Assembly: GCF_016026235.1 (NCBI RefSeq)
Contig: NZ_CP065613.1
Direction: 5' to 3' (one strand)
DNA: 64,000 nt
DNA from: Escherichia coli
GTDB taxonomy: Bacteria; Pseudomonadota; Gammaproteobacteria; Enterobacterales; Enterobacteriaceae
Shown here: positions 7,898-26,165 of the stretch, in pieces
Position numbering within the stretch: the first letter of the stretch is position 1
Layout: every line of letters starts with the position of its first letter
The notes under the pieces: model-generated
The model's input: only the letters and a program-made list of their open reading frames with translations
What the model was told of the DNA's origin: nothing
Databases searched by the model: none
Program-made: the position numbers and the translations under genes

Positions 7898-9064
7898 TTA
7901 ATCATTGCCAAACAAGTCGCGAGTATAAACTTTATCTGCTACATCAGCCAGATCGGCAGACATACGGTTAGAAATAATAACATCAGCTTCTTGTTTGAAT
8001 GCATCCAAATCACGTACCACGCGCGACCGGAAAAAATCGTCCTCTTTCATCGCTGGCTCATAAACGATTACAGGAACGCCTTTCGCCTTGATTCGCTTCA
8101 TAATACCCTGAATCGAGGAAGCACGAAAATTGTCTGAACCACTCTTCATAATCAAACGATAGACGCCAACAACTTTCGGTTTACGTGCAAGGATAGAATC
8201 GGCAATAAAGTCTTTTCGCGTGCGGTTGGCATCAACAATTGCCGAAATCAGATTATTCGGCACAGATTGATAGTTTGCCAGTAACTGCTTGGTATCTTTC
8301 GGCAGACAATAACCTCCATAACCAAATGACGGATTGTTGTAGTGATTACCGATACGCGGATCAAAGCAAACCCCCTCAATAATCTGGCGGGAATTAAGCC
8401 CCAGACTTTCAGCATAACTATCTAGTTCATTGAAATAAGCTACACGCATCGCCAGATAGGTGTTGGCAAAAAGTTTAATCGCCTCAGCTTCCGTTGAGTC
8501 AGTAAACAACGTTGGAATATCTTGCTTAATAGCACCTTCTTGTAATAATGCTGCAAAACGTTCAGCGCGTTCAGACTGCTCACCAATCACAATGCGTGAT
8601 GGATGCAAGTTATCATAAAGTGCTTTCCCTTCGCGTAAAAACTCCGGCGAAAAGATCACATTTTCAATACCAAATCGTTCTTTAATGGACTCTGTAAAAC
8701 CAACAGGGATAGTTGATTTTATAATCATTACAGCGTTGGGATTAATTTCTGTCACATCACGGATGACCGCTTCCACGCTTGAGGTATTAAAATAATTTGT
8801 TTTTGGGTCATAATCGGTAGGCGTGGCAATAATAACGTAATCGGCATTTTTATACGCGTCATACTTATCTGTCGTAGCGCGGAAATTGAGCTCTTTAGTC
8901 GCCAGATACTCTTCAATCTCCTTATCAACAATCGGTGACAGCTTCTTGTTAAGCATGTCCACTTTGGCCTGAACGATATCCAATGCCACCACTTCGTGAT
9001 TTTGCGCAATCAGAATACCATTTGAAAGACCAACATAACCTGTACCTGAAATTGTTATTTTCAT
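7898..9064 (-). CDS. ugd: UDP-glucose 6-dehydrogenase
   Basis: ORF 7898-9091; start placed at [16 protein letters not shown] (NAD-binding GxGxxG); 388 aa from that start. Confidence 0.93.
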
Positions 9065-9267
9065 TAGCTCTGACTTCTTCCGATTAAACATTTAGAGTGG
9101 TCATTAATCCACCACCATAACTTCATCTACTGCGGGATTTTTAACGCTGATGTAGATGAACAGTCAAGGCAGCGATCCTGCTGTGCGGCTCTGTATTATA
9201 TCTCTTTTTTAACCCAAAATTATAAAAAAAGTCCATAACCTGCCGCTTTGTATAATAAAAAAGCCCG

Positions 9268-9279: not shown

Positions 9280-10571
9280 TGAGGGATCCCCAGAAAATTT
9301 AGTAAACCATTATCATATTGGTATACCGTTGCTGTAGAACTTTCAGCCCTGCGTCAAGTGACAGTGTGTTTAGTATGAGTGGAGAATGTCGAATCACATT
9401 CTCCGCCAGTTTTAATAACGAGATGACTCGCCTGTGCTTCACTGTATTTGCCTGATATTTATGATGTATCCCTTTGTTTTCCAGGCTGAAACCGCTTAAC
9501 CACATAATGATACTGGCTAATGTTGCGATCAGACTCAATACCGTGACCCGCCCGGATGAATGACTGGCACCAAACCGTAGTCCAAATCCCCAGCGAGGAT
9601 TTTTTTCATCCCTGAAATTTTGCTCAATTTGCATTCTACGGCTGTATAATTTCATTACCTGTTTTGGCGAGAACTCAGTACTGTTTGTGAAAATAAACCA
9701 TGGTGATTTCCCGGCAGTACGAGCTTTAGCCGTCACCGATGGTCTGGTTGCTCTTTCCTTCGAGCGTTTAAATCTACGACCTTTAGGCTTACTTTTATAA
9801 AGATAAAAATGCCCTTCATGTTGTGCATTTTTATCTCGACCCAGCAGGCCTTCACCTAAATAAATTGCTGTCGTTGATGCTTTTGTGCCTGAGTCCGACA
9901 CCTTTTCCCAGCCATTACCAACATTGTAATAATGATTGCCCAGTACCCGGCAAATATAGGTCCAGCCACGGGAGCGGAGCTGTTGGAACCATCGCCCCTG
10001 AAAACCGGCATCTGTAATAACAATGACATCAGTCCCGGGGGAAAAGCACTCAGCAAGCGATTCCAGAAAACGCTCATGTACATCTGCATTCGCTGTCTGT
10101 GATGATGGAACGACACAACTCATCAACGGTAAAGAACGCCCGTCACATGCCAGGCTTGCCCGCAAAAGCTGAAAACGAGAGGCATGATAAGCACTCCAGT
10201 CAATGAGTATCACAACACGAGACATTCCCCGCGTAATCTTTTGGGTAATTCGCTGAAAAATGGTGGAAACCTCATTTTGCAAATGTCGATTCCCCAACAG
10301 TCGATCCACCCGCTTTATTTTGTTTTTAACTGATGCCGTACCGGTTAAATGACGCCCGATACTGGTAAGTGTGAGGGAAGCGCCATTTATTACAGCATTA
10401 GTTGCGTCAATCAGTGATTTTTGACGGTAAAGATGCAAAGGGGCCAGTATATTGTTAAGGAAATTTTGGCATAATGAACGTGCAGGCATAGTGGTGATCT
10501 CCTTGAAATTGTTAGCACAATCAATTAGATCACATCTCACTATGCCTGTCTTGTTTTCTGGGGATTCCTCA
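9280..10571 (-). mobile_element. IS4-family (IS10-like) insertion sequence, about 1.29 kb, apparently intact
   Basis: Terminal inverted repeats TGAGGGATCCCCAGAAAA (9280-9297) and TGAGGAATCCCCAGAAAA (reverse complement of 10554-10571), 17/18 match; single transposase ORF; flanked by 12-bp direct repeats. Confidence 0.85.
9299..10489 (-). CDS. DDE transposase, IS4 family (IS10-like)
   Basis: ORF 9299-10594 extends beyond the IS end, so start placed at internal MPARSL (10489) preceded by AAGGAG; motifs KIKRVDRLLGNRHL, ITDAGF, YSRRMQIEQNFRDEK, HKYQANTVKHRRV parallel the IS10 transposase as recalled. Confidence 0.85.
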   Translation of the reverse strand: MPARSLCQNFLNNILAPLHLYRQKSLIDATNAVINGASLTLTSIGRHLTGTASVKNKIKRVDRLLGNRHLQNEVSTIFQRITQKITRGMSRVVILIDWSAYHASRFQLLRASLACDGRSLPLMSCVVPSSQTANADVHERFLESLAECFSPGTDVIVITDAGFQGRWFQQLRSRGWTYICRVLGNHYYNVGNGWEKVSDSGTKASTTAIYLGEGLLGRDKNAQHEGHFYLYKSKPKGRRFKRSKERATRPSVTAKARTAGKSPWFIFTNSTEFSPKQVMKLYSRRMQIEQNFRDEKNPRWGFGLRFGASHSSGRVTVLSLIATLASIIMWLSGFSLENKGIHHKYQANTVKHRRVISLLKLAENVIRHSPLILNTLSLDAGLKVLQQRYTNMIMVY

Positions 10572-10583
10572 GAGGATTTCTCC
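10572..10583. repeat. Target-site duplication (right) of the IS element: GAGGATTTCTCC
   Basis: Identical to 9268-9279. Confidence 0.75.
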
Positions 10584-10616
10584 GGGGTTTGCATTGATTA
10601 GTTGATTTAAATCAGA

Positions 10617-12023
10617 TTAATCCAGCCATTCGGTATGGAACACACCTTCTTTATCAATGCGCTTATAAGTATGTGCACCGAAATAGTCACGCTGTGCCTG
10701 GATCAGGTTCGCAGGAAGAACAGCGGCGCGGTAGCTGTCATAATAGGCAACCGCAGCGGCGAAGGTCGGAACCGGGATACCGTTCTGTACCGCATAAGCG
10801 ACGACATCGCGCAGCGCCTGCTGGTAGTCATCGGCAATTTGCTTGAAATACGGAGCCAGCAGCAGGTTAGCGATCTGCGGATTTTCGGCATAAGCATCGG
10901 TGATTTTCTGCAGGAACTGCGCACGGATAATGCAGCCAGCACGGAAAATCTTCGCGATTTCGCCATAGTTCAGATCCCAGTTGTACTCTTCAGACGCAGC
11001 ACGCAACTGAGAGAAGCCCTGGGCGTAAGAAACGATTTTGCCCAGATACAGAGCACGACGAACTTTTTCGATGAACTCAGCCTTGTCGCCTGCTGGCTGC
11101 GCTTGCGGACCAGACAGTACTTTGGACGCGGCAACACGCTGCTCTTTCAGAGAAGAGATGTATCGTGCAAACACAGACTCGGTAATGAGCGACAGCGGTT
11201 CACCGAGATCTAGCGCGCTTTGGCTGGTCCATTTACCGGTACCTTTGTTAGCCGCTTCATCCAGAATCACATCAACCAGGTAGTTACCGTCTTCATCTTT
11301 TTTAGTGAAGATGTCTTTGGTGATGTCGATCAGGTAGCTGCTTAGTTCACCATTATTCCACTCGGTAAAGGTCTGCGCCAGTTCATCGTTGGTGAGGTTC
11401 AGGCCACCTTTAAGCAGAGAATAGGCTTCAGCAATCAGCTGCATATCTCCGTATTCAATACCGTTGTGAACCATCTTCACATAGTGACCTGCGCCATCGG
11501 CACCAATATAGGTAACACATGGCTCCCCATCTTCAGCCACTGCGGCGATTTTGGTCAGGATCGGTGCGACCAGTTCATAGGCTTCTTTCTGGCCACCAGG
11601 CATGATGGAAGGTCCTTTCAGCGCACCTTCTTCGCCACCAGAAACACCGCTACCGATAAAGTTAAAGCCTTCTGCAGACAGCTCACGGTTACGACGAATG
11701 GTGTCCAGGAAGAAAGTGTTACCACCATCAATGATGATGTCACCTTTATCGAGGTATGGCTTGAGAGAATCAATAGCAGCATCCGTGCCTGCACCTGCTT
11801 TCACCATTAACAGGATGCGACGAGGCGTTTCCAGAGATTCAACAAACTCTTTTATTGTATAGTAAGGAAATAACTTCTTATCCGAATGAGTAGCTATAAT
11901 TTTTTCTGTTTTTTCACGAGAACGGTTAAAAATTGAAACAGTATAGCCGTGACTTTCGATATTTAGTGCAAGATTACGCCCCATTACCGCCATACCGATA
12001 ACCCCAATCTGTTTTTTTGACAT
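10617..12023 (-). CDS. gnd: 6-phosphogluconate dehydrogenase (decarboxylating)
   Basis: ORF 10617-12029; start placed at [21 protein letters not shown]; ends ...GVFHTEWLD. Confidence 0.95.
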
Positions 12024-12874
12024 TTTCACTCCTATTTAATTAGCAGAATAATAAACGTATTGAAACACATATAAAAATATGTCATATGGAAAATATTGCA
12101 TTAAGACAAACAACAGATAATTGTATATGTAATTAAACTTATATTAAATTAATTACAGAAAATACTCAAAACTAACGTTGCTCTCCACACTCTAGTTTCC
12201 AGTGTCTCAGACTAACTATTATTAATAGTCTCCGCGATATATAAGAGATTTAACTGCCATGCCTCAAATATATCTTTCAACTCACTTACATTTTATAAAT
12301 TACAATAATCGAGAGTCAAATTATCAACCTCAAAATAATTTTGACAAACAACGAGGCTGTTGGTGTTTCCAGAATACTCAAATTGGTTCTATTCGTCATA
12401 TGTACTAAAACCTTAAAGCCAATGAAATATATCTTATCACAGTCATCTAATAACCATATGATAGCCACCAATGAATTTAGAAAAAATAAAACTTAAGACT
12501 GTTCCTGACTCTGAAATTTTATACAGCACAAATAATGCAATGAACTATTCTATACTTTTAAGTAAAATAAAGACAATCTTTATCATAATACTAAGTTCAT
12601 TCGCACCAATTAACCTCAGAATTCATTTCAATGATAACTAAAGGCTTTATAAAAATAATTCTTCAGGAGAGGCACTTGGTAAACATAATTTTACTAAATA
12701 GATTGCAGATTATAATCTGATACAAAAACATTAATCACACTTCTTGTCCACACAGACCCACATTTCCCTATTCTATTGAAATTCACTTAAAACTCATCCA
12801 TGACATCATCAAATATAAAAATACATTTGCAAATCAAAAGCATTATCCAATATTTCTTTATAAGATTTGCCGAA

Positions 12875-13678
12875 TTATCTCCAAGAGGCAAAGTGGCGCT
12901 TAAAAAACAAACACAGCGGATTTATATGATGTTTGGCAACAGCATTAACAGCATAGTGGGAGAAATAATAAAGAGATTTAAACAGACCAAACTTTAAATA
13001 TTTCCTGTAAAAGGCCCATTGTGAAAATATTATTTTTAATTTATTTGACGAGAGTGTATCGGTGCCTACTCGATAATAGGCCAGTGTTTCGTTCAAACAA
13101 TATGCATAATCAATTTTATCTAAAATGCTCAGCCATAGTGCCATGTCCTGTCTTTTCCTGATTGTTGGCATAAACATTTTACCAAGAGATGAAGTATCAT
13201 ATACAGCTGTCAAGCAACCTATTACATTAGTCTTTAATAATTCAGAATAATTAACTTTAGAAACAGGATTAATTTGGGATAAAAGTTTCCCGCTAAAACT
13301 AACCTTTTGATATGAGGTATAAGTGAAAGCATAATTATTTGAAAGCATAAAGTCTATCTGTTTTTTTATTTTCTCTTTATGCCAAAAATCATCACTATCT
13401 AAAAAAGCGATAAACCGACCTTTAGCTTTACTGATCGCTATATTTCTTGACATACCAGCCCCATAATTCTTCTCATTTGAAATGAGAACAACTCTTGAAT
13501 CTTTTTTTTGATATTCCCTGCAAATAGACACTGTATTATCTGACGAACAATCATCGACAATAATCATTTCTATATTATTATATGATTGAGATAGAACAGA
13601 ATCAATTGTACATCTAATCGTTCTTTCAGAATTATATGTGGGTGTTATGACTGAAACTAAATATTTATCGGTACTCAT
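12875..13678 (-). CDS. Glycosyltransferase, family 2 (last gene of O-antigen cluster)
   Basis: 267 aa; ITPTYNSERTI ... VDDCSSD ... FLDSDD motifs typical of GT-A fold GT2 enzymes; AT-rich. Confidence 0.8.
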   Translation of the reverse strand: MSTDKYLVSVITPTYNSERTIRCTIDSVLSQSYNNIEMIIVDDCSSDNTVSICREYQKKDSRVVLISNEKNYGAGMSRNIAISKAKGRFIAFLDSDDFWHKEKIKKQIDFMLSNNYAFTYTSYQKVSFSGKLLSQINPVSKVNYSELLKTNVIGCLTAVYDTSSLGKMFMPTIRKRQDMALWLSILDKIDYAYCLNETLAYYRVGTDTLSSNKLKIIFSQWAFYRKYLKFGLFKSLYYFSHYAVNAVAKHHINPLCLFFKRHFASWR

Positions 13679-13837
13679 AGAATCATCTCAAACTTACATA
13701 AGTTTCATTATATAATGTCATGTTTATCATATCCATCCTTGGTAGCTTATTAAGAAATTTCACATATTAAATATTTATCAAGTATTTCATTAACATCCCA
13801 CCTTAATATAAAAAGCCGTTAATTAAGAGAGTAACTA

Positions 13838-13937
13838 CAAAGCAAAGCAAAGCAAAGCAAAGCAAAGCAAAGCAAAGCAAAGCAAAGCAAAGCAAAGCAA
13901 AGCAAAGCAAAGCAAAGCAAAGCAAAGCAAAGCAAAG
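13838..13937. repeat. Pentanucleotide microsatellite (GCAAA)x20 on + strand, (TTTGC)x20 in the operon direction
   Basis: Perfect tandem array visible at 13838-13937, between gne (ends 13989) and the GT2 gene (starts 13678). Confidence 0.95.
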
Positions 13938-13988
13938 ATGGTTTTATAAAAATATTGACAGTGAATAAAATAGCACATTAAAATCGTC

Positions 13989-15002
13989 TTATTTATATCC
14001 TTTGGGATTGTTTTTTTGCCAACGCCAAGAATCAATTATCATTGTATCTAAATCATATCGAGAAGACCACCCTAATTCTAAAAATGCTAGAGATGGATCA
14101 GACCAACATTCAGCTATATCACCAACTCGACGAGGTTTGAAACAATAAGGGATATCAATTCCAGTACAACGTTTAAAGGTATTTATCACATCAAGAACTG
14201 AATAACCAACCCCTGTACCAAGATTATATACTTTATAATTTCCCCCAAAATTACGGTGTTCTAAAGCAGCTATGTGCCCTTCAGCCAAATCCATAACATG
14301 AATATAATCTCTAATGCCTGTTCCATCAGGTGTAGGATAATCATTTCCGAATACTGATAAATATTTTAGATTACCAATAGCCACTTGAGTAATATAAGGA
14401 ATTAAATTATTTGGAACACCATTAGGATCTTCGCCTAATAGACCAGAAGAGTGGGCTCCTACAGGATTGAAATAACGCAAAATAGTAATACGCATTGTTG
14501 GCTCAGCCAAAGCTATATCCTTCAAAACCCTCTCTACTATAAGTTTTGAAAAGCCATATGGATTAGTTGTTCCGCCAACGCTACTATCTTCCTTCAAAGG
14601 AATAGTTTCAGGCTTACCATACACTGTTGCGGAGGAGCTAAAAATAAAACTAATAACGCCAGCGCGCATCATTTCTTCAAGTAAAACAATAGTTCCGTTA
14701 ACATTGTGATCATAATATTCCAATGGATTTGAAACAGATTCAGCGACGGCTTTTAATCCTGCAAAATGAATAACATCTGTAATATCATGATACTGGAAAA
14801 TATGTTTGAGTTTTTTCCTATCACGCACATCACCATGATAAAATAGAGGCCTACGTCCACAAATTTTTTCGACCCTTTCTAACGACTTAGACGATGAGTT
14901 CGATAGATTATCCAACACCACCACATTTTTTCCGTATGATAATAAGGATAATACAGTATGTGAACCAATGTAACCTGCACCACCAGTAACCAAAATAGTC
15001 AT
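13989..15002 (-). CDS. gne: UDP-hexose 4-epimerase, GalE family (probably UDP-GlcNAc 4-epimerase Gne)
   Basis: 337 aa; LVTGGAGYIGSH ... HFAGLKAVAESV ... YxxxK context; GalE-family SDR inside an O-antigen cluster. Substrate (UDP-Glc versus UDP-GlcNAc) cannot be decided from sequence by eye. Confidence 0.8.
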   Translation of the reverse strand: MTILVTGGAGYIGSHTVLSLLSYGKNVVVLDNLSNSSSKSLERVEKICGRRPLFYHGDVRDRKKLKHIFQYHDITDVIHFAGLKAVAESVSNPLEYYDHNVNGTIVLLEEMMRAGVISFIFSSSATVYGKPETIPLKEDSSVGGTTNPYGFSKLIVERVLKDIALAEPTMRITILRYFNPVGAHSSGLLGEDPNGVPNNLIPYITQVAIGNLKYLSVFGNDYPTPDGTGIRDYIHVMDLAEGHIAALEHRNFGGNYKVYNLGTGVGYSVLDVINTFKRCTGIDIPYCFKPRRVGDIAECWSDPSLAFLELGWSSRYDLDTMIIDSWRWQKNNPKGYK

Positions 15003-15348
15003 AAAACTCCTTATATTTCATCTATCTGCCTAGGATATAAAACAAGAATATAAACACATTATAAATAGTATAAACTGTGAAAGAATAAAAATTTAGAATA
15101 GTTAAGCCCAATGTTACTATAAAAATACAATATGCAAGTATACGTTATTTTTCTAAACATCTCGACATATTGTATGAGTCTAACACTATATTGCATTTTT
15201 TTCGTGTAAATTATGTTCTAGTGGTGTCAGTAATTCGAGCAATTTATGAGGCCTTTTATTCTTGTACAGTATGCAATATTGAGCCTGTTTATGATTGACA
15301 TATTCAGATTTTCAAAGAGCAATTCTTCATTAAACTCAATAAACGGCT

Positions 15349-15634
15349 ATCTCAGTGATCGGTTAAAGCGCTCACAGATGGTGTTCATTTTCGGCGTATC
15401 GAGATAAGCCTATTGGTGCCTGATAGCGGCTTCCTGTAGCTTTTTGTCAAATTTTCCCAGGAACTCTTCCCCATAATCGGGTATATTCTGGTTGATTCCA
15501 ACAGGTAACAACCGAGCTTGATGGCAGAAGAAACTCATGATTACATCACTGTTAAGCGACGTTACCGCCACCGCCAAAGCGTAGTTGCTGCGTTCGTCAA
15601 TCACGGTAATAACATAACGCCGATTCTGAGCTCA
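15349..15634 (-). pseudogene. Remnant of an rve-type (integrase-core DDE) transposase gene, frameshifted and truncated
   Basis: Minus-strand frames give ...RRYVITVIDERSNYALAVAV... (VIDxxSR-like first catalytic-D region) and, in another frame, ...PKMNTICERFNRSLR* (xERFNRxL C-terminal integrase-core motif); local G+C looks higher than the surrounding cluster. Confidence 0.45.
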
Positions 15635-15944
15635 ATATAAGCTCACCGGTCTTTAGCGGGCTAATAGTACCTTGGACTTGAAGTCTGGGAACCCAGTTAC
15701 ACCAGTATTAGCCACATTTTATCATGTGCTGCCTAGCTCATTCCTCCAATAGTGGAGACGCTCGGGCAGGCCAAATGCTACTGTTCACACTACAGATTCA
15801 GACGGTCAAAAATCTGTTCTTTTCCAAGGTTGAGAAGTCCTATTCTAATTCATCATATTTCTTTCAAAATTTCTGGATGTCATAGTTTTGTAAGACATAC
15901 TAGAAAGATTTACTACTTGAGATAAGCACTTCCGAGCCTATATA

Positions 15945-16307
15945 TTAAACGCGTATTGATACACAAAAATTTTCTGCGGATGCATTGATTCCATGTCTTT
16001 CCCTAAAATGCAGGGTTTTCATTCTTAATTTTGCAATATCAGGCATGGCATTGTATTCCATCGCATAGATTGTTGCACGGTAATGCCCGAAACACCTGAC
16101 GCCGATATGTTGGTTCAACATAACAATCTCTCCTTTCTTATCTGGAGACAATTGCAACATCTCTGAAAACTTACACTCTGCCCATCGTGTACATAACCAA
16201 AGACAACAGAAATATGTCACGCCTTTTTCCAAATTCCAATTTATATTCCTTACTCTTATAACACAAGGAGTATCTGAATATATAAGAGTGAAGGAGTGCT
16301 TTGGCAA
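15945..16307 (-). CDS. Hypothetical protein or gene fragment of unknown function
   Basis: 120-aa ORF in the decayed segment between gne and wzy; no recognisable motifs; may be a remnant. Confidence 0.25.
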   Translation of the reverse strand: MPKHSFTLIYSDTPCVIRVRNINWNLEKGVTYFCCLWLCTRWAECKFSEMLQLSPDKKGEIVMLNQHIGVRCFGHYRATIYAMEYNAMPDIAKLRMKTLHFRERHGINASAENFCVSIRV

Positions 16308-16752
16308 AAATATTTAATTCAAAGATATAAAACACAATCGATTTAGTATCAAAAGATTACTCAGTAATCTTTCACCAAATAAATTAGTTCAAAATAACAC
16401 TACAGCAATGGCAATAAAACCATTCCATGAAATAGCAACATAAACACGCAAATAGAATTTCCACGTAAATTTATAACACTTACCAATCCAAAACATTATT
16501 TATTATAGATTGTATTCATGGGATTATCACCTGGTTCAGTTATAGATTTGTGATCTATGTAGTTCACTATTCTTACAGTTCTCAAAAAACTTAAATTAAA
16601 TTGTTGCGCTATTACCCTATAGTCTTTAAATACCCATAAAAACAAAGGCAAAAACCAATTTGTTTTACAGATATCTAGAATAAGATAATATGTCAACAAT
16701 TAACAAGTTACTACTATTGTTTGTTAATAAAAACCTGCAATTAAAATAATAA

Positions 16753-18015
16753 TCATGCATTAACCGAACCCCTTCTTATTAATCTTTTTTTATGACAAAT
16801 ATAAAAAGATGAAAATATATATATATATATTATTTTCATATATGCAACATTCAAAAATATAACCTCGCCTTTATAATGAAAAGAAAAACTGAGTATCGTA
16901 ATCATTAATACAACTATTTTAGGTTTGATGCTATTAGCAGCATAAATAGTCAAAAAAATAAAAAATAAAAAATAAAAAATAACCGATGGTACCGCACCCA
17001 AAAATAATGCTAACCGCATAAATCCAGCATCGGTCCCGAGATAATATGTCCCATCCTTTAACGTATAGTACCCATCACCAATGAAGATCTGTTTTTCTGT
17101 TAACGGAAAATACATATTAAATAATGCATCTGTAGATGTTGTTGATAACTTTCCTGAATCTAAATAATAATATAACATTTGAAAAGAATAATCCGAATAT
17201 TTTTTCAAGATATCATAAACATGTTCATTTAAAAAAAATCTCCAAAAAATAAATAAAAACAGAGATACATAAATCAAAATTTGAAGCGCCCGATAAAACT
17301 TCTTTTTATAATCAGAGCAAATAAAACTATATACCCCTCCGAGGACAAACCCCAAAACAGCCGTACGCCCAGCAGAAATTGACGCGAACAGCAAGAGTAT
17401 GATAAAAAATAATTTAAAAAAGAAAGGAATATTACAGTCTTCCTCATTAAACCAAACAATTGAAAGAAAAGATAATAATGACATAATTATAGCAAGACCA
17501 AAGGCAACAGAACCTGATATACCTAATCCCCTGATGCCTCCATATGTATTACTCATAAATTCTATTTCTTCTTTTGTTCTAATAATACTTTGAATATAAG
17601 CATTTATACTGGGAAAAAACATCATCAGAATAATAAAAAAGGATTGTAAGAGGGCAATTAGAAAAAACAATTTCAACACATTATCATTGTTATGCTGGAT
17701 TAAGTGCGACGCAATTATAACAGAGCTGAATAATGCAGCGAAATTATTAAAGATAACCCCCATGATAGATAAATCTCCTGTACCATTTAATACCAATGAA
17801 ATACAAGAAAAAAAGAGCATGCAGGCCAAAGACAAAAACGCAATAAAAAATATTCTTGTACTTATTAGACTAAAAAAAACAGTCCTTATCCTGATATTTG
17901 TAATTAAATAAATCAAGGAGAAAATATATATAAGATAGCCTGAATTAAAAAAAACAGGGATGCTAAAAGCAAACACAAATAAAAACAACAAAAATACATC
18001 AAAAAAAACCTTCAT
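16753..18015 (-). CDS. wzy: O-antigen polymerase
   Basis: 420 aa, highly hydrophobic multi-TM protein with a larger hydrophilic loop, adjacent to glycosyltransferases and wzx; identity as Wzy is by elimination (the other polytopic protein has the Wzx pattern). Confidence 0.7.
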   Translation of the reverse strand: MKVFFDVFLLFLFVFAFSIPVFFNSGYLIYIFSLIYLITNIRIRTVFFSLISTRIFFIAFLSLACMLFFSCISLVLNGTGDLSIMGVIFNNFAALFSSVIIASHLIQHNNDNVLKLFFLIALLQSFFIILMMFFPSINAYIQSIIRTKEEIEFMSNTYGGIRGLGISGSVAFGLAIIMSLLSFLSIVWFNEEDCNIPFFFKLFFIILLLFASISAGRTAVLGFVLGGVYSFICSDYKKKFYRALQILIYVSLFLFIFWRFFLNEHVYDILKKYSDYSFQMLYYYLDSGKLSTTSTDALFNMYFPLTEKQIFIGDGYYTLKDGTYYLGTDAGFMRLALFLGAVPSVIFYFLFFIFLTIYAANSIKPKIVVLMITILSFSFHYKGEVIFLNVAYMKIIYIYIFSSFYICHKKRLIRRGSVNA

Positions 18016-19127
18016 AAAAATTCCTTTTGTGACACGACCCGATAATAAATATCAACCATACGCTTTGTGTTTTTATTTATATCAAACATTTTTATTATTG
18101 TATCTCGGTTATATTCAATCGAACACCTATATTGATTACTATCTATTAATTTCACACACCTTGAAAAAACAGATTTCATGTCAATATCATCATGCAGATT
18201 CAAATACATTGCATGATTTCCTAATAGCTCTCTGTTTGCATCGATGTCTGATACTATCGGAAAACAATTACATAAAACGCCCTCCATTAAAGATAATGGA
18301 GCACCATCATTGCTAGGAATACTAAGAACAAAATCAGATTTATGAAGAATCGACCTTAATTCCTCTTTTTGAATAAACCCTATTAAATTTACTTTATAAT
18401 TATCTCCCTCACATTTTTTTGTGAGTTCTATTATCTTATCATGTGTGGTCTTTGACGATGAGCGGCCTAGTATATTGATATTAAAAAAGTACCCTTTACA
18501 ATCATAATCTTTCATATCAATAACAGCTTCTAAAAAGGACTCTATGTTATAAATATTATCCCAATTTCTTACAGAAGTTATTGTTATACATTTATCGTCC
18601 CTTATGCTTGACGTTTTTTCATCTGAAAAGAACCCCACATCTACACCATATTGAAAAGTATGTATTCGCTCCTGATTCACATTGAAATACGATATTATTT
18701 TATTTGTTATATGCTTGGCGGGTGAATTTACAACACAAAAACTTTTCATTGCTTTTACATATATTTTTCCTAATATCCCTCTCTTTTTTATAGTATTGTT
18801 AATGTCACTTCCCCATACTGAGAGTATCTTCTTTACTTTTCTAGGCAAAACACATGAAATTAAACCATAAGAACTAAAAAAATGGACATGAACCAACTCA
18901 GGCTTTAATAAAAAAAAATAAAAAAGAAGAAAAACAGGTGCGTATATAAAATCAAATTTAGTTTTTGTAAGTCTTGGTATCTTATATATCTCTCCTATTC
19001 CAACATTCTCAGAAATACTTTTGTCATAGTGTAGTGTGACAATTCTATAATCAATATATTCTTTGGAACCATGAATCCAGTTACTAATATGACCAGATAT
19101 CATAGGGCCAAAAACAAGTACTCTCAT
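18012..19127 (-). CDS. Glycosyltransferase, GT-B fold (GT4 / family 1 type)
   Basis: 371 aa; C-terminal E-x7-E-like region ...LSLMEGVLCNCFPIVSD...; overlaps neighbours by 4 bp. Confidence 0.75.
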   Translation of the reverse strand: MRVLVFGPMISGHISNWIHGSKEYIDYRIVTLHYDKSISENVGIGEIYKIPRLTKTKFDFIYAPVFLLFYFFLLKPELVHVHFFSSYGLISCVLPRKVKKILSVWGSDINNTIKKRGILGKIYVKAMKSFCVVNSPAKHITNKIISYFNVNQERIHTFQYGVDVGFFSDEKTSSIRDDKCITITSVRNWDNIYNIESFLEAVIDMKDYDCKGYFFNINILGRSSSKTTHDKIIELTKKCEGDNYKVNLIGFIQKEELRSILHKSDFVLSIPSNDGAPLSLMEGVLCNCFPIVSDIDANRELLGNHAMYLNLHDDIDMKSVFSRCVKLIDSNQYRCSIEYNRDTIIKMFDINKNTKRMVDIYYRVVSQKEFL

Positions 19128-20017
19128 TTTTTCCCCATTCGTTTTCTTAAATTTAAATAATAATTTTTAGCATGGAGTGGAGACAACCACCCAATACATT
19201 TCCCCACAATATTGTGCTTGATTTTTATTGATTCAATGACAGAGAATAAAAAAAACTCAACTGAAAAGTTGGTTGCATTAAATAAATGAATAGGTGCAAC
19301 TTCATTTTTTCTGAAAAATTTAGATAAAATAGTCTTGTTTTTTATTTGGATAAACTTCTTACAACTGCCAATTGAGCCATGCCTTATCCTATAAAATAAA
19401 ACCACGTCATCTATATTCCTTACAATACATCCACTCAATACAGCCCTACACAAAAAATCATAATCTTGAGCAGCATCTAAACGCCTGTAACCACCTAATT
19501 TATAATAAAGCTCTGACCTTAACAACCAAGTTGGATGAATTATTTCATTCCCCCACGAAAAATCTACTGGGTTCATATTAAAATAATCCCTAACAACATT
19601 ATCGTTCTCATCAATAACAACAGCCTGTCCACCGACTAAACTGACATCAGAATGCTTATTCAGATATTCTAATTGCTTTTTAAAACGCCCGTTAATAACA
19701 ATATCATCAGCATCCATTCTGGCAATAAAATCATAGCCATTACACGCGCCAAAAATTAATTTATTTAAACTTGCCGCCAACCCTTCGTTCTCATTAAAAA
19801 AAACAACGCACACATCATTTCTGGCACTAACTTCTTTTAAATATAAACTCTCAACATGAGGAATATCTTCATTTCTCCTATCGACTCCAATTATTAATTT
19901 ATATTTCACATTCTTCTTTTCCAATCTTTCCAGATCCTGAAGAGTACTGTCTACTGCCTTTTTTAGTATTATGTAACTCTCATTATAGTAAGTCATGATT
20001 ACAGCAAGTTTTTGCAT
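19124..20017 (-). CDS. Glycosyltransferase, family 2
   Basis: ORF 19124-20143; start placed at internal MQKLAVIMTYYNE (typical GT2 N-terminus); DAD/DxD-like motif RMDADD. Confidence 0.75.
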   Translation of the reverse strand: MQKLAVIMTYYNESYIILKKAVDSTLQDLERLEKKNVKYKLIIGVDRRNEDIPHVESLYLKEVSARNDVCVVFFNENEGLAASLNKLIFGACNGYDFIARMDADDIVINGRFKKQLEYLNKHSDVSLVGGQAVVIDENDNVVRDYFNMNPVDFSWGNEIIHPTWLLRSELYYKLGGYRRLDAAQDYDFLCRAVLSGCIVRNIDDVVLFYRIRHGSIGSCKKFIQIKNKTILSKFFRKNEVAPIHLFNATNFSVEFFLFSVIESIKIKHNIVGKCIGWLSPLHAKNYYLNLRKRMGKK

Positions 20018-21204
20018 TTCAAATCCCACAGACAACAAATTGTAATAATAATTGGCGATAGAACTACAGCATATACTATATAATAATATGGGAATAATGA
20101 AGAAAATAAAAAAATAGATATTAACGATAATACATTCGAACAAATCACATATTTTACTATATTTTTTGATGAGTGTATCATATGAATTAATTGAGTTAAA
20201 TATTGATTGAGTATACTTGGGATAACAGCTAGGCTAAATGAAAATATTAGAAAAATAAAAAAACGAGATATTTCTCCCTTTGTCAAATAAATAGAGATAT
20301 ATGATATTGCAGCCACACATATAAAAACAACGATGCTGTAAAACAACAATTTGAGTAGCTGACTTCTGTATTTTACTTCCACATAGTTAGTTTTGTGCCC
20401 TACGGAATAAAAAACCTCTGAATTACATTTATTTAAGACAGTGATAATTGAATTGGAAAATGTTACGGATACTGTCACAAATCGCATAACGACGTTATAT
20501 ATCCCTAACAAGCTAGCATTTCCTGATGCCAATATAGCAGAATTAATTATAGGCTGAATAAGTGCATTTACCCCGCTATATATGTACATATGCTTAATGT
20601 TTTTCAAATAATTTTTAATGTGTCTAAATGATATTTTTCCCAACCTATTATCATTCTTTATTTTTATCAAACTAATAAGTCCAACCAGAGCAGATGCTAT
20701 CGCCTGAATAAAAATAAACATGTGTAATTCAAAAGCATAATATAAAACAAATAAAACCGCTAAAATTTTAACTACCAAGGACACTATTATTATAAACCTA
20801 AAGTTATCCTTTGCTATATAGTACCAACTATTAAGCATGCCAAATCCAAACGAGAATATTACGACACAAAAATAATCACTCTTCCCTGCAGTCTCTGAAA
20901 TTATAATAAACACCATCGCACATACAAAAAAAAACACTAACTTAAAGAAAATCGCTGAAATAACAAACGACTGCTGAGCAATTTCATTACCCTTAAGCTT
21001 ATTTAATTGTTGTACGCCTACTGTATTTAGACAAGCATCATAAATAAATGAAATAAAAGTTGATATAGTTAACACATACGAATAAACTCCATATCCCTCT
21101 AAATTAAATCTAGTTAAAACCAGCGGCATAATTATTATTGGGACAATATAATCCACTAGCTTTAGAGCACTTACAGAGATAATACTTCTTAAAAAACTAG
21201 ACAT
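19999..21204 (-). CDS. wzx: O-antigen flippase
   Basis: 401 aa, about 12 predicted TM segments, polysaccharide-transporter-family N-terminus. Confidence 0.75.
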   Translation of the reverse strand: MSSFLRSIISVSALKLVDYIVPIIIMPLVLTRFNLEGYGVYSYVLTISTFISFIYDACLNTVGVQQLNKLKGNEIAQQSFVISAIFFKLVFFFVCAMVFIIISETAGKSDYFCVVIFSFGFGMLNSWYYIAKDNFRFIIIVSLVVKILAVLFVLYYAFELHMFIFIQAIASALVGLISLIKIKNDNRLGKISFRHIKNYLKNIKHMYIYSGVNALIQPIINSAILASGNASLLGIYNVVMRFVTVSVTFSNSIITVLNKCNSEVFYSVGHKTNYVEVKYRSQLLKLLFYSIVVFICVAAISYISIYLTKGEISRFFIFLIFSFSLAVIPSILNQYLTQLIHMIHSSKNIVKYVICSNVLSLISIFLFSSLFPYYYIVYAVVLSPIIITICCLWDLKCKNLL

Positions 21205-21643
21205 CTTTTATTTTTCTAGCCGGTTGCCCAACATATACACCTGGTTCCTCTAAGTTTTTTGTAACTATCGCTCCGGCACCAACAATAATATTACTACAGA
21301 TCTCCACTCCCGGTAAAACAATTGCTCCAGCACCTAACTGAACATTATCTTTTATTACTACCTTATCTTTTTTATATTTAAAGATTTTCTTTTCAAATAC
21401 CAAACCTGTACTGAGAATTTTACTACCAGCAGACAGTACTACATTATGGCCTAAAATGACTCCTCCACTAGCATTTATATACACAAAATCATTAATTGAA
21501 AAGGAATTACCGAATTTAAGATTCGATGGTTCTACTATCTTATAAGGACCATAAATATGGGATTGCTTATAACGTTTTACTCCAAACTCACAGATAAAAC
21601 ATAATTTATACCATATTAATTGAATTCTAGAGAATATGCTCAT
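21197..21643 (-). CDS. Hexapeptide-repeat O-acetyltransferase
   Basis: 148 aa; left-handed beta-helix hexapeptide repeats (GHNVVLSAGSKI... GAGAIVLPGVEI... GAGAIVTKNL). Confidence 0.8.
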   Translation of the reverse strand: MSIFSRIQLIWYKLCFICEFGVKRYKQSHIYGPYKIVEPSNLKFGNSFSINDFVYINASGGVILGHNVVLSAGSKILSTGLVFEKKIFKYKKDKVVIKDNVQLGAGAIVLPGVEICSNIIVGAGAIVTKNLEEPGVYVGQPARKIKDV

Positions 21644-22557
21644 AGCTTTAACTCCTTTCCGAGCCTTTCATCCCATTCAAATGGAGTTATCTTATCATAC
21701 CCCGATCCTTGATGAAATGTTAATTCGCCTACATATATTTTTTCTTGAACAAGATATAAATCAACCCTAAGATATTTGAAACCTTGACTTAGTTTTTTAG
21801 ATATATTTAGAGCGTTTTCTAACTGACTTGGTTTACTAATATTCTTCACATTAAATTTTGAAAGATCTTTTCCCCTTCTCGCCCAGCAAAAATCTAACAT
21901 ATTCCAACTAGTATCATATATAGAACGATAATTCCCTCCCTCACGATCTAACGACACATAAATAAATTTCGGTTCTCCATTAAAACAATGAATTTTTATA
22001 TCATTAGGAACTTTCCCTGCCTCATCCTCTAATAACCTTTCAACAATTATACGCCTATCAATATTTTTATATTGCCATTCTCTTCCGTGATGGTAAATAT
22101 TACAATTAAGTGTTCTAATAAATTTCCACTTAACCTCATCAATATTCAATAAATTCTTGTCTCTAACAATAAAATAATCGCCACAATAGTGGTTCGATTT
22201 TATAACAAACTTACCCTGTGGTAAAGACTCAAAGGTAATATCAAAAGGGGTATCATAAACCTTTAACAAATCAATTATATTATCTCTCGTTCCCAGCCTA
22301 TTTTCCACATATTCTCGCACTCTAATTTTATCAGCACATATTGTATGTAATAGTGTTCTGTCATTTAGTTTCAACCATTGTAACTTTTGATTTAATGTCT
22401 TCGGATTGTTCAATCCGAGAGGGTATCCCTGATATTCAAGAAACTGCTTTTTTATAATCAAGCTATCTGGAGTAATCAGAACGACAAAGCATTTCAATAA
22501 ATACTTTATATTATACAATATATACATCAATTTCATGGAAAGATTTTTTCTATTCAT
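21640..22557 (-). CDS. TupA-like ATP-grasp protein (predicted amide ligase acting on a sugar carboxylate)
   Basis: 305 aa; NPKTLNQKLQWLKL motif and overall layout recalled as characteristic of the TupA-like ATP-grasp family. Confidence 0.65.
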   Translation of the reverse strand: MNRKNLSMKLMYILYNIKYLLKCFVVLITPDSLIIKKQFLEYQGYPLGLNNPKTLNQKLQWLKLNDRTLLHTICADKIRVREYVENRLGTRDNIIDLLKVYDTPFDITFESLPQGKFVIKSNHYCGDYFIVRDKNLLNIDEVKWKFIRTLNCNIYHHGREWQYKNIDRRIIVERLLEDEAGKVPNDIKIHCFNGEPKFIYVSLDREGGNYRSIYDTSWNMLDFCWARRGKDLSKFNVKNISKPSQLENALNISKKLSQGFKYLRVDLYLVQEKIYVGELTFHQGSGYDKITPFEWDERLGKELKL

Positions 22558-23237
22558 ATTAGAATCTCAAATAATTTATGCTGTCTTACCCATTCTCTTG
22601 CCTGACCTTTCGATACTACTACCCCAACGTTGCTCATTTTTAATATTGGTAAATCGCTAATAGAATCAGAGTAAGTTGTTATATGATACTCAGAAACATC
22701 TAACGACAAAACACCTTTTAACATTAATACTTTATTATATCCCATGCAATTCTTGCCACTAATTCTCCCTAAACACCTGCCTCTATTATCAAATTTAATT
22801 TTTGTGCATACAAAGCCATTAATCTCTAATGCTTTAACTAAATATTGAATATAAATATCATAGCCTCCAGAAATAATAATAACCTCATCTCCATCTTTTA
22901 AATGCTTATTCAATATCTTAATTATGGCAGGATTAATTCTGCGCAATATAATTTCATTAACGTAATCACGAGCCATTACATTAAGAATATCCCTTTCAAT
23001 ATTTTTTAACATATACAATAAAATTCTTTTCCTTAAGCTTTCCCCCAATCTTATTTTATTTATTATTTGTTCGATTTTGAAAATGGATAATGAAGATGCC
23101 ACCCTATTTAAAGTCTGTATTTTGATGTTATTACATATCCCCAAACGATCTATTACATAGTATATAAACCCATCGCCAGTTTGAAAATCAACTAAGGTTT
23201 CACACAGATCAAATAATGCTATCTTTTTTAACTTCAT
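22554..23237 (-). CDS. HAD-superfamily phosphatase (subfamily IB-like)
   Basis: 227 aa; N-terminal motif I variant FDLCETL, ISGG, C-terminal YSDSISDLP acidic motif. Confidence 0.7.
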   Translation of the reverse strand: MKLKKIALFDLCETLVDFQTGDGFIYYVIDRLGICNNIKIQTLNRVASSLSIFKIEQIINKIRLGESLRKRILLYMLKNIERDILNVMARDYVNEIILRRINPAIIKILNKHLKDGDEVIIISGGYDIYIQYLVKALEINGFVCTKIKFDNRGRCLGRISGKNCMGYNKVLMLKGVLSLDVSEYHITTYSDSISDLPILKMSNVGVVVSKGQAREWVRQHKLFEILI

Positions 23238-24315
23238 ACATCTGCTCTAAAATTCTGATTACATACAACATTTGTTTTTTCGTTCCAATAGTAATTCTGA
23301 CACATAACTCGACCTCTTTCATATGAGATAAATCACGAACAAATATTAAATTAGATTTTAAACGTTCAATGAATGCTTTTTTATCATTCATCGATTTAAA
23401 CTCAATAACCAAAAAGTTCCCCTCTCCATATACAATATTTTTTTGACCTATATTTATATTTTTCAACTTATCATAAAAAAAACGCTTAGCCTGATTAACT
23501 TCCTTAACATAATTATTCATATATTCAACTTCGTCTAATGCATTCAAAGCGGCAATCTGACTTAGCTGAGGTATATTTTTTGCATTTCTGACTTTATTTA
23601 TTGCACCTAACAAATCTTGTGACGCTATTATATATCCCATTCGCATCCCTGCCAATGAAAATGCTTTGGAAAATGTTCGCGTAATAATTATGTTATTAAA
23701 GGAGTTTACAAAATCAGCACACGTTAATTTTGCAAATTCATAATAGGCTTCATCGATAATAAAATATATTCCTTTATATTTTTCTACAAGATAATGTATA
23801 TCTCCTTTAGGAATAAGAGTACCTGTAGGATTATTTGGGTTACATAAATAGGCCATTTGAGGTTGAAACTTATTGAGATCGCTTTCAAACTTCTTTAATG
23901 ACCAATAGTAATTATCTTCAAAAATTGAATAACAAATTGTTGCCCCTTGAGCTTCACCTGTTGTTCTGAAATTATCATACGTAGGTGCTAACATCAATAT
24001 TTTATCATTTTCATTAATTAATGTACGAATGATAGACTCGTGTGCTGAGTCTGAACTACAAAAATATTGGATATATTCCTTTGGCACCCCCACATAGTTT
24101 GATATCTTTATTATTAAATCTTTATTGCTCACATCTGGATAATACCTAATTAGATTATTTACCAACGAATTCATTAATGCATTTTTTACTCTTTCTGGCG
24201 GTTCAATAGTAGATTCGTTCCAATCTAATTTTAATATTGTTTCTTTATTTTCACTCTCCCATATAGCGTGGGATGCAAGTTTATATGGTTTCATTTTTTT
24301 TACGAACTTATTCAA
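23209..24315 (-). CDS. HisC-family PLP-dependent enzyme (aminotransferase or decarboxylase acting on a phosphorylated substrate); first gene of the O-antigen operon
   Basis: 368 aa; motif-for-motif parallel with the hisC in this window (CNPNNPTG vs CSPNNPTG; IDEAYYEF vs ADEAYIEF; TRTFSKAFSLAGMRMGY vs [16 protein letters not shown]; VRITIGT vs LRITVGT) but highly diverged and AT-rich. Confidence 0.8.
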   Translation of the reverse strand: MNKFVKKMKPYKLASHAIWESENKETILKLDWNESTIEPPERVKNALMNSLVNNLIRYYPDVSNKDLIIKISNYVGVPKEYIQYFCSSDSAHESIIRTLINENDKILMLAPTYDNFRTTGEAQGATICYSIFEDNYYWSLKKFESDLNKFQPQMAYLCNPNNPTGTLIPKGDIHYLVEKYKGIYFIIDEAYYEFAKLTCADFVNSFNNIIITRTFSKAFSLAGMRMGYIIASQDLLGAINKVRNAKNIPQLSQIAALNALDEVEYMNNYVKEVNQAKRFFYDKLKNINIGQKNIVYGEGNFLVIEFKSMNDKKAFIERLKSNLIFVRDLSHMKEVELCVRITIGTKKQMLYVIRILEQMYEVKKDSII

Positions 24316-24800
24316 TTTTTACTCCATTACGTTCTGTGCATAACATTTAAAGAATTTAAACATGCTCAAGAAAACACAATATCTTATCTTAGATAATTTT
24401 CAGAATTGCTCCTATGTTTCATAATTCGTATATAAGCCCATACATTTATTTTATTCTTAATATAATCTCGTGAAGAATAATCGACATATTGTGTCAAAAA
24501 AAATATATATCTATTCCACATACTGAATATCTTCACTAACTTCTGCAAATTGAGAGCATAAGTAATCAGACACAGAATATTCAATATATTATACTTTCCA
24601 TGCTTGTCTGTAGTCAGAAATATAGAGACACCTTATTAAATCTTTAAGTTTTATCTTACTCTTTTTGTATATATACTGAGTATTTGGACATTTATAATAT
24701 ATAAAATAATAGCGTTTGATGTTAAGGAAAATCTCCATTATTGAATATTTATCGCCAATTGTTTAGTAAAAAATCAGTGCCACATGTTTTCTCTTATATG

Positions 24801-24839
24801 CACGCTACCGCCCCTGGCTTTACAGCTACCAGAGCACTG
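24801..24839 (-). promoter_or_regulatory. 39-bp JUMPStart element with ops (GGCGGTAGCGTG) antitermination site upstream of the O-antigen operon
   Basis: + strand reads cacgctaccgcccctggctttacagctaccagagcactg, the reverse complement of the JUMPStart consensus as recalled; ops 12-mer at 24801-24812. Confidence 0.85.
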
Positions 24840-25097
24840 CATGCATGCCTACGATGTGACGAGCGTTACCCACTCGCGCTAAACCCGAAAAATTCAAACG
24901 CTAATTGTCTTACCAATCCGCTCTGGAAACAAGGAAAATCCTGGAAAACTTTGACGAAAATCCTATTGCTAACTCTTTGTTATTCTGATTGTTTATATAA
25001 AACAACGGCAGGAATATTCGCAACAAATTACCTTCGCCGCAAATCTTCACAGCCGTTATAATTTTCTTATCAACCGTTACATCCGGTCAGATTTTCA

Positions 25098-25991
25098 TTA
25101 TTCGCTTAACAGCTTCTCAATACCTTTACGGAACTTCGCCCCTTCTTTTAGGTTACGCAGTCCATACTTCACAAACGCCTGCATATAGCCCATTTTTTTA
25201 CCGCAGTCGTAGCTGTGACCTGTCATCAGCATGGCATCAACGGACTGTTTTTTCGCCAATTCGGCAATGGCATCAGTCAGCTGAATACGCCCCCATGCAC
25301 CTGGCTGAGTGCGTTCAAGTTCCGGCCAAATATCGGCAGAAAGCACATAGCGACCAACGGCCATGATGTCTGAGTCCAGCGTCTGCGGCTGATCCGGTTT
25401 TTCGATAAATTCGCCGATGCGGCTGACTTTACCTTCACGATCCAGTGGTTCTTTGGTCTGAATGACGGAGTATTCAGAGAGGTCACCCGGCATACGTTTT
25501 GCCAGCACCTGGCTGCGGCCCGTTTCGTTGAAGCGCGCAATCATGGCAGCAAGGTTGTAGCGTAGCGGATCGGCGCTGGCGTCATCGATAACAACGTCTG
25601 GCAGTACCACGACAAATGGATTGTCACCAATGGCAGGTCGTGCACATAAAATGGAGTGGCCCAAACCTAAAGGTTCGCCCTGACGCACGTTCATAATAGT
25701 CACGCCCGGCGGGCAAATGGACTGTACTTCCGCCAGCAGTTGACGCTTCACGCGCTGCTCAAGGAGAGATTCTAATTCATAAGAGGTGTCGAAGTGGTTT
25801 TCGACCGCGTTCTTGGACGCGTGAGTTACCAGGAGGATTTCTTTGATCCCTGCAGCCACAATCTCGTCAACAATGTACTGAATCATTGGCTTATCGACGA
25901 TCGGTAGCATCTCTTTGGGAATCGCCTTAGTGGCAGGCAACATATGCATCCCAAGACCCGCTACAGGAATAACTGCTTTTAAATTCGTCAT
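25098..25991 (-). CDS. galF: UTP-glucose-1-phosphate uridylyltransferase paralogue (regulatory subunit)
   Basis: ORF 25098-26003; start placed at [30 protein letters not shown]. Confidence 0.93.
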
Positions 25992-26165
25992 TATTTCATC
26001 CACCTGTAAAATGGTTGCTGAATTATAGCTTGTTCGATTTTTTTCGCCAGCATCAATTACCCTGAATTGATTACTGAATTACTTATGATGTTACGCCGCT
26101 TCGTTGTGGATTGCAGTAGCATTGTTCCTAAGTATGGCTCCATTTTTCCAGGAATGGTCGCAAAT

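Follow-up and report, generated by a model that had tools for sequence, protein, structure and literature searches.

The window analysed here, a stretch of 64,000 nucleotides from Escherichia coli (contig NZ_CP065613.1 of assembly GCF_016026235.1), contains an O-antigen cluster that occupies positions 12875-24315 of the minus strand as an island of 30% GC. The first three genes of the cluster, wfdP, wfdQ and wfdR, follow a JUMPstart element and encode, in that order, a pyridoxal phosphate (PLP)-dependent aminotransferase of the HisC family, a HAD phosphatase and a TupA-like ATP-grasp protein. As judged from sequence comparisons and from the reported chemistry of a near-identical Shigella boydii locus, these genes very probably form a cassette that puts a serinol (2-aminopropane-1,3-diol) amide on the galacturonic acid (GalA) of the O-unit.

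The cluster is the O143 O-antigen locus of E. coli. Megablast of positions 12000-25000 matched four complete genomes at 99.5-99.6% identity over 98-100% of the query, with ~13 kb shared at 99.6%, and the NCBI annotation pipeline (PGAP) assigns their wzx and wzy genes to the 'O143 family'. Its names for the cassette genes in these genomes are PLP-dependent aminotransferase, HAD family hydrolase and 'ATP-grasp fold amidoligase family protein'. Of 5426 E. coli genomes searched by distant blastn, the four of O143 were the only ones with the cassette, and no second serogroup had a DNA-detectable copy. The S. boydii counterparts are almost the same proteins, with 304 of 305 residues identical for the ATP-grasp protein (B5L379_SHIBO) and 225 of 227 for the HAD protein (B5L378_SHIBO); within clusters at 90% identity, UniProt uses the name WfdR for B5L379_SHIBO and WfdQ for an E. 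coli entry, B5L388_ECOLX. The names wfdP, wfdQ and wfdR are in use in the literature, where they are cited without a function (PMC5156936).

The natural point of comparison is the capsule pathway of Campylobacter jejuni HS:2, in which Cj1437 makes (S)-serinol phosphate by transamination of dihydroxyacetone phosphate (DHAP), Cj1436 makes ethanolamine phosphate by decarboxylation of L-serine phosphate, Cj1438 uses its C-terminal domain (Cj1438C) to form an ATP-dependent amide at the C6 carboxylate of glucuronic acid (GlcA) once GlcA is part of the chain, and Cj1435 dephosphorylates the amide (PMC11800397). A serinol-phosphate amidation pathway has also been described for HS:19 (PMC13276843).

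The three genes and their products

The JUMPstart element upstream of the operon is confirmed on the minus strand by Rfam model RF01707, and the open reading frames (ORFs) that follow it through 21640-24315 overlap by 29 bp (PLP and HAD genes) and 4 bp (HAD and ATP-grasp genes), with a further 4 bp overlap between the ATP-grasp gene and that of a hexapeptide acetyltransferase. The PLP gene begins with TTG, with GGAG 7 nt before it, and the N-terminus of its product, MNKFVKKMKPYKL, is kept in a Vibrio homolog. It is separated from JUMPstart by an AT-rich spacer of 485 bp (24316-24800). This spacer is unusually long and holds two 10-of-12 sigma-70-like matches on the coding strand (24725-24696 and 24617-24588); megablast matches to 24527-25000 in other E. 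coli genomes fall under ISAs1 transposase annotations.

The PLP enzyme matches a single Pfam family, PF00155 (Aminotran_1_2, E 3e-47), and a DegT-type sugar aminotransferase was rejected because PF01041 (DegT/DnrJ/EryC1) gave no match. It shares the fold and subfamily of HisC, and scores 262.4 bits against the NCBIfam hisC model TIGR01141, below the equivalog cutoff of 276.55, whereas the genuine hisC of the window reaches 422.7 bits. The two are only 28% identical (121 bits), the best solved HisC structure in the PDB gives 124 bits, and wfdP lies in the low-GC island outside the his operon. A function as a HisC or histidinol paralog was rejected; genuine hisC and hisB are present elsewhere in the window. 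K214 (Schiff-base lysine), R222 (PLP-phosphate arginine), and R322 and R335 (substrate-phosphate arginines) of E. coli HisC, in a numbering that agrees with the alignment, correspond to K217, R225, R327 and R340 of the PLP enzyme, and their retention fits a small phosphorylated substrate.

Comparison with the two Campylobacter PLP enzymes supports a grouping of WfdP with the Cj1437-type transaminase and not with the Cj1436-type decarboxylase. Our contig scan supplied related Campylobacter loci, not C. jejuni itself. One of these, L087, has an HS:2-like layout with a ligase domain 88% identical to Cj1438C, a phosphatase 85% identical to Cj1435 and, between them, two PLP genes in the order expected for Cj1437 and then Cj1436. 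The PLP enzyme is 37% identical (243 bits, E 1e-81) to the Cj1437-position gene of L087 and 38% identical (237 bits) to that of C. novaezeelandiae; with the Cj1436-position genes of L087 and L007 it shares 22-23% identity and 56-60 bits, and the Cj1436-type candidate was rejected on this difference. Within the set of cassette-linked PLP enzymes, pairwise scores run from 237 to 480 bits, compared with 109-136 bits for HisC and 40-78 bits for the Cj1436-type gene. It might still be asked whether the amine is ethanolamine or another amino alcohol, made from serine or threonine phosphate by a decarboxylase resembling Cj1436 or CobD, given that the enzyme also matches the CobD threonine-phosphate decarboxylase model TIGR01140 at 142 bits and that C. 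jejuni uses both serinol and ethanolamine (PMC11800397). However, the bit scores above, the clustering of WfdP with all the cassette-linked PLP enzymes and the report of 2-aminopropane-1,3-diol in the polysaccharide itself (PMC10609480) make such an amine most improbable. The grouping with Cj1437, beside this chemistry, points to serinol. In L007, a Campylobacter metagenome-assembled genome with the HS:2-type layout, the Cj1437-position gene (4631-5530) ends in consecutive glycine codons, a poly-G tract, and appears frameshifted; phase variation there could switch the locus between the serinol and the ethanolamine amide.

The HAD protein matches PF12710 (E 3e-20) and the NCBIfam HAD-SF-IB model TIGR01488 (70.4 bits, cutoff 45), and falls just under the cutoff of TIGR01490 (96.8 bits against 98.3). 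It is 24% identical to Cj1435 (E 7e-18). One weak match was all that a search for solved structures related to it by sequence returned, and no contig carried an exact match to the machine-read Cj1435 sequence. In canonical HAD phosphatases, motif I reads D-x-D-x-T and its second Asp serves as the general acid/base. An alignment of the window protein (22554-23237) with Cj1435 and homologs from loci L002, L004, L005-L007, L010, L013, L016 and L018 shows a Cys in place of this second Asp, as D-x-C-(E/D)-T, in 11 of 11 cassette phosphatases, Cj1435 included, and the motifs FD(L/F)C(E/D)T, SGG and YSDxxSD are invariant throughout the set. It is conceivable that the phosphatase acts early, freeing serinol from serinol phosphate so that the ATP-grasp protein ligates the free amine: the gene order is PLP-HAD-ligase, and the HAD protein weakly matches NCBIfam models for phosphatases of free amino-alcohol or amino-acid phosphates (56-57 bits for histidinol-phosphatase, 29 bits for SerB). 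We regard this reversed order as distinctly unlikely, as the C. jejuni ligase takes (S)-serinol phosphate as its substrate and the phosphorylated amide is what Cj1435 hydrolyses (PMC11800397, PMC13276843), and the window encodes homologs of both.

The ATP-grasp protein matches PF14305 (ATPgrasp_TupA) over essentially the whole model (E 2.6e-45, positions 2-241 of 241), and over residues 52-300 it is 35% identical to the published Cj1438C construct (E 2e-46); the Cj1438C and Cj1435 query sequences came from the supplement of PMC11800397. Its AlphaFold2 model, built with 55 homologs, has a mean predicted local distance difference test score (pLDDT) of 95.1. At the top of its Foldseek matches in the PDB stand ATP-grasp ligases without exception, namely D-Ala-D-Ala ligases (Ddl), LysX/ArgX, RimK, PsnB and PurD, at modest TM-scores of 0.35-0.47, and no solved structure was detectably related to the protein by sequence. 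Residues 8-28 form a moderately hydrophobic N-terminal helix, perhaps a weak hint that the enzyme acts near the membrane. A first-pass annotation of this DNA, made without database searches, had described three overlapping genes behind JUMPstart, had assigned them to the same three families, had argued that the PLP enzyme is not a sugar aminotransferase of the DegT/WecE type and had placed the 305-residue protein in the ATP-grasp superfamily; the ORFs, profile matches and structural neighbours bear out each of these points.

Conservation of the cassette in other polysaccharide loci

The cassette is conserved as a unit across polysaccharide loci. The closest relatives of the ATP-grasp protein come from Vibrio parahaemolyticus, V. 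alginolyticus and V. harveyi (69%) and from Gallaecimonas pentaromativorans (62%), and the order PLP-HAD-ATP-grasp is found in all six contexts examined for the five closest relatives: two V. parahaemolyticus contigs that share one protein, Gallaecimonas, and three other contigs, metagenomic or genomic, whose ATP-grasp proteins are 45-49% identical to that of the window. In one of these three the cassette adjoins ugd and an epimerase gene.

In V. parahaemolyticus, V. alginolyticus and G. pentaromativorans the likeness extends to a collinear, low-GC block of nine genes, which run PLP, HAD, ATP-grasp, acetyltransferase, wzx, GT2, GT4, wzy and GT2 (GT denoting a glycosyltransferase) and whose products are 41-69% identical to those of O143 in Vibrio and 35-62% identical in Gallaecimonas, at 31-34% GC. 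The collinear stretches are 12875-24315 of the window, 6252-14585 of L002 and 6255-14613 of L004; the V. parahaemolyticus assemblies with the block include GCA_040100905.1 and GCA_032335315.1. The Vibrio and Gallaecimonas loci differ from O143 in lying between wza/wzz-type export genes and ugd, and in having neither an IS481 remnant nor a gne gene before the last GT2, both of which O143 has. This collinearity suggests a shared origin of a marine type, and possibly related polysaccharides.

A genome-wide scan, from which 80 more distant loci with TupA-like ATP-grasp genes were kept, gives the wider context. Of these, three Campylobacter and four Helicobacter loci alone have PLP and HAD partners; the ATP-grasp loci of Proteus, Acinetobacter, Enterobacter, Pantoea and flavobacteria have none. 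This distribution bears on a quite different explanation, in which the ATP-grasp protein adds an ordinary amino acid, in the manner of the WemR-type proteins of Proteus mirabilis, and its PLP and HAD neighbours are histidinol-type paralogs that have nothing to do with the amide. The general prediction for TupA-like proteins is indeed that they attach amino acids to surface polysaccharides (PMC13419641), and the best NCBIfam matches of the PLP enzyme and, among named functions, of the HAD protein are hisC and histidinol-phosphatase. However, the histidine pathway already has its own hisC and hisB in the window, the three cassette genes overlap and travel together across phyla, the loci of taxa with amino-acid-amide polysaccharides lack the PLP and HAD partners, and the S. 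boydii O8 O-antigen is described without any amino-acid amide (PMC10609480). We consider this explanation extremely improbable, and a WemR-type amino-acid ligase acting alone was rejected. The WemR-type proteins do resemble WfdR in belonging to PF14305, at 31-46% identity, in their location in polysaccharide loci and in forming an amide on a uronic acid carboxylate (PMC13419641), but their loci have no adjacent PLP and HAD genes and presumably draw free amino acids from the cell pool, whereas the O143-type clade appears coupled to an amino-alcohol phosphate supply of its own. As TupA-like enzymes are generally thought to add amino acids, PLP and HAD partners would mark the subset that needs such a supply.

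The cassette has more in common with C. jejuni HS:2 (NCTC 11168), where a HisC-family transaminase, a TupA-like ATP-grasp enzyme and a HAD protein with the D-x-C-E-T motif likewise share one polysaccharide locus and the product is likewise a serinol amide of a hexuronic acid, known on the O143 side through the S. boydii O8 literature. The features of the pathway that are present in the window are three adjacent homologous genes in a polysaccharide locus and a supply of uronic acid (ugd and a gla-like epimerase). The two also differ in several respects. The acceptor would be GalA in O143 and is GlcA in HS:2; the O143 polymer is a Wzx/Wzy-type O-antigen assembled on undecaprenyl diphosphate (Und-PP), whereas the HS:2 polymer is an ABC-transporter capsule; the O143 ligase is a stand-alone protein of 305 aa with its own N-terminal helix, in place of a C-terminal domain in a GT2 fusion; the gene orders are PLP-HAD-ligase and ligase-PLP-(PLP)-HAD; and the proteins are 24-38% identical. 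O143 also has no decarboxylase of the Cj1436 type, and hence no ethanolamine branch. In this last respect it is closer to C. jejuni HS:19 (HS19.11C ligase, HS19.09 phosphatase), which makes a serinol amide only, with a single transaminase, ligase and phosphatase (PMC13276843), and whose layout is shared by locus L005 of C. novaezeelandiae; the HS:19 ligase differs from WfdR in being fused to a glycosyltransferase, its acceptor is GlcA and its polymer is a capsule.

Surrounding genes and the supply of uronic acid

The features of the window are collected in Table 1.

Table 1. Features in and around the O143 O-antigen cluster, in window coordinates
Feature	Position	Strand	Basis
his genes, including hisC (409-1479)	low-coordinate end of window
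wzzB	5422-6459
Accessory short-chain dehydrogenase/reductase (SDR) epimerase, probable gla/uge	6828-7832	+	ORF; PDB matches
ugd, UDP-glucose 6-dehydrogenase, UDP-GlcA supply	7898-9091	-	ORF; ugd annotation in matching genomes
IS4-family transposase, intact, 431 aa, between gnd and ugd	9299-10594	-	NF033591, 360 bits
gnd	10617-12029
GT2	12875-13678	-	ORF, NCBIfam
gne/galE	13989-15002	-	ORF, NCBIfam
IS481-like remnant, frameshifted, internal stops; between gne/galE and wzy	about 15003-16752	-
wzy	16753-18015	-	ORF; PGAP 'O143 family'
GT4	18012-19127	-	ORF, NCBIfam
GT2	19124-20017	-	ORF, NCBIfam
wzx	19999-21204	-	ORF; PGAP 'O143 family'
Hexapeptide-repeat O-acetyltransferase	21197-21643	-	NCBIfam WcaF-family, WbbJ-like matches
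wfdR, TupA-like ATP-grasp amidoligase (predicted), 305 aa	21640-22557	-	PF14305
wfdQ, HAD-IB phosphatase (predicted), 227 aa	22554-23237	-	PF12710, TIGR01488
wfdP-type HisC-family PLP aminotransferase, 368 aa	23209-24315	-	PF00155
JUMPstart element with ops (GGCGGTAGCGTG at 24801-24812)	24801-24839	-	Rfam RF01707, 60 bits, E 4e-13
galF, then colanic acid genes	25098-26003

An amide on GalA presupposes a source of UDP-GalA, and the accessory epimerase, a protein of 334 aa encoded between wzzB and ugd, is a good candidate. It matches PDB entry 5u4q at 633 bits and the UDP-GlcA 4-epimerase of Bacillus cereus (6zl6/6zla) at 153 bits, occurs in 269 of the 5426 complete E. coli genomes, and is probably a UDP-GlcA 4-epimerase (gla/uge) that provides UDP-GalA from outside the galF-gnd cluster. 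For O143, one N-acetylglucosamine (GlcNAc, the initiating sugar), one N-acetylgalactosamine (GalNAc) and a gne gene have been listed, with citation of a 1996 structure paper (PMC7685785), and the gene content seen here (three glycosyltransferases, gne, ugd and the gla-like epimerase) fits the four-sugar unit that has been reported. The hexapeptide acetyltransferase travels with the cassette: its counterparts in Vibrio and Gallaecimonas are collinear, at 59-63% identity. It probably adds the 3/4-O-acetyl groups that the amidated GalA is reported to carry.

The count of glycosyltransferases touches on an older puzzle. O143, O52 and O167 have been listed as having one glycosyltransferase too many, and the O167 polysaccharide has an amide-linked L-alanine (PMC7685785); we count three in the O143 cluster, for a unit of four sugars. 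Several NCBI records label the ATP-grasp protein 'glycosyl transferase', a possible source of the extra entry for O143, and the supernumerary enzyme of both O143 and O167 may be a mis-annotated amidoligase.

Two further observations concern the layout of the cluster. Each of the four O143 genomes has kept the IS481-like remnant, which the collinear Vibrio and Gallaecimonas blocks lack and which may mark the joint between gne and the O-unit block. The wzy gene is an intact ORF of 420 aa in the window, and the annotation of one O143 match, NZ_AP027818.1, marks it as frameshifted.

Proposed pathway and its significance

The chemistry that the cassette would have to account for is that of the S. 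boydii O8 O-antigen, which a 2023 review describes as carrying a uronic acid amidated with serinol and for which it gives the repeat ->3)-GlcNAc-(1->2)-Galp3OAc4OAcA6NR-(1->3)-GalNAc-(1->4)-GlcA-(1->, with R as 2-aminopropane-1,3-diol (PMC10609480). Of the two uronic acids in this unit, GalA alone is amidated. Because the S. boydii proteins are near-identical and this amide is reported for O8, we take the amine to be serinol and the acceptor to be GalA. The first-pass annotation had proposed that the module makes a small amino alcohol and attaches it as an amide to a hexuronic acid, and had taken the C. jejuni sequence of amine phosphate, amidoligase and dephosphorylation as its model. That pathway is documented (PMC11800397), the Cj1438C and Cj1435 sequences and the Cj1437-position genes are all homologous to their presumed counterparts here, and the proposal itself gains support from this homology, from the conservation of the cassette and from the O8 amide. 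Its caveat that the amine and acceptor cannot be read from the sequence is right as far as direct reading goes; the indirect route through O143 and S. boydii O8 nevertheless identifies them as serinol and GalA.

The catalytic steps, their order and the stage of amidation are inferred from the C. jejuni counterparts. WfdP would convert DHAP and L-glutamate to (S)-serinol phosphate, as Cj1437 does; WfdR would then use ATP to form an amide between serinol phosphate and C6 of GalA, as Cj1438C does with GlcA; WfdQ, like Cj1435, would take the phosphate off the amide product; and the adjoining hexapeptide acetyltransferase would O-acetylate the amidated GalA, with UDP-GalA coming from ugd and the accessory epimerase. 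Since ATP and the phosphorylated amine are cytoplasmic, amidation would have to precede flipping by Wzx. With GlcNAc as the first sugar (PMC7685785), GalA would be the last one added, and so the residue amidated by a ligase that, like Cj1438C, acts on a terminal uronic acid. Amidation is most likely to take place on the cytoplasmic face once GalA has become the last sugar of the Und-PP-linked tetrasaccharide, and a terminal-acting ligase must still ignore GlcA while GlcA is terminal.

It is also possible that UDP-GalA is converted to UDP-GalA-serinol, or to its phosphate, before glycosyl transfer. This would simply explain why GalA alone is amidated in a unit with two uronic acids, and a stand-alone ligase of 305 aa, unlike the glycosyltransferase-fused C. 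jejuni enzyme, might suit such a role. Yet in C. jejuni the homologous ligase works on a uronic acid already in the chain (PMC11800397), action on the terminal sugar yields the same selectivity if GlcNAc is first and GalA last (PMC7685785), and the hydrophobic helix of the ligase, for what such a weak hint is worth, would sit better near the membrane. Amidation of the nucleotide sugar therefore seems to us unlikely, if deserving of serious attention, and amidation of the lipid-linked unit is preferred.

Several points weigh against the assignment of a serinol amide on GalA to this cassette. The link between E. coli and S. boydii depends on the sharing of one O-antigen by E. coli O143 and S. 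boydii type 8, and the wfd entries in UniProt, including the S. boydii WfdR as a type 8 protein, presumably derive from the Shigella survey of Liu et al. (2008). The Cj1437 and Cj1436 references are genes identified by position, in Campylobacter loci with 71-88% identity to NCTC 11168, rather than deposited sequences; the HAD protein shares only 24-26% identity with Cj1435; and the TIGR01141 score of 262 lies so near the cutoff of 276.55 that, going by the score alone, WfdP might retain some activity on histidinol phosphate. Neither the choice of GalA over GlcA within the O-unit nor that between UDP-GalA and the lipid-linked unit as the substrate of the ligase can be read from sequence alone. 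The O8 structure was taken from the table of a secondary review (PMC10609480). Finally, the searchable literature, which does not extend to subscription titles, yielded no experiments on WfdP, WfdQ or WfdR, no papers that give these genes a function, and no papers linking serinol or an amidoligase to Shigella or O143.

Given the PGAP name 'amidoligase' and the pathway known from C. jejuni, the O143 cassette is best viewed as a further member of that pathway; its chemistry and enzymology are already known, and it introduces no new biology or principle. A stronger view, which we hold only tentatively and with rather more doubt than belief, is that O143 provides the first case of serinol-phosphate amidation that is Wzx/Wzy-dependent and Und-PP-linked, in which a stand-alone ligase picks GalA and spares GlcA and belongs to a distinct TupA-like clade.

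Under the assignment proposed here, the capsule pathway of Campylobacter would extend to a Wzx/Wzy O-antigen, and wfdP-wfdQ-wfdR would be linked to a decoration long known from O-antigen chemistry, which gives three generically named genes of an enteroinvasive E. coli (EIEC) and Shigella cluster specific, testable functions. The PLP-HAD-ATP-grasp signature could serve to recognise from sequence where uronic acids carry amino-alcohol amides, and to correct 'glycosyl transferase' annotations of the ligase. If the stronger view holds, the PLP/HAD-partnered clade would predict amino-alcohol amides in many uncharacterised polysaccharide loci of Vibrio, Gallaecimonas, Helicobacter, Capnocytophaga and metagenomes, the 'one extra glycosyltransferase' anomaly of O143 would come down to a mis-annotated ligase, and the V. 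parahaemolyticus polysaccharide specified by the nine-gene block would be close to the antigen of EIEC O143 and S. boydii, and possibly cross-reactive with it.

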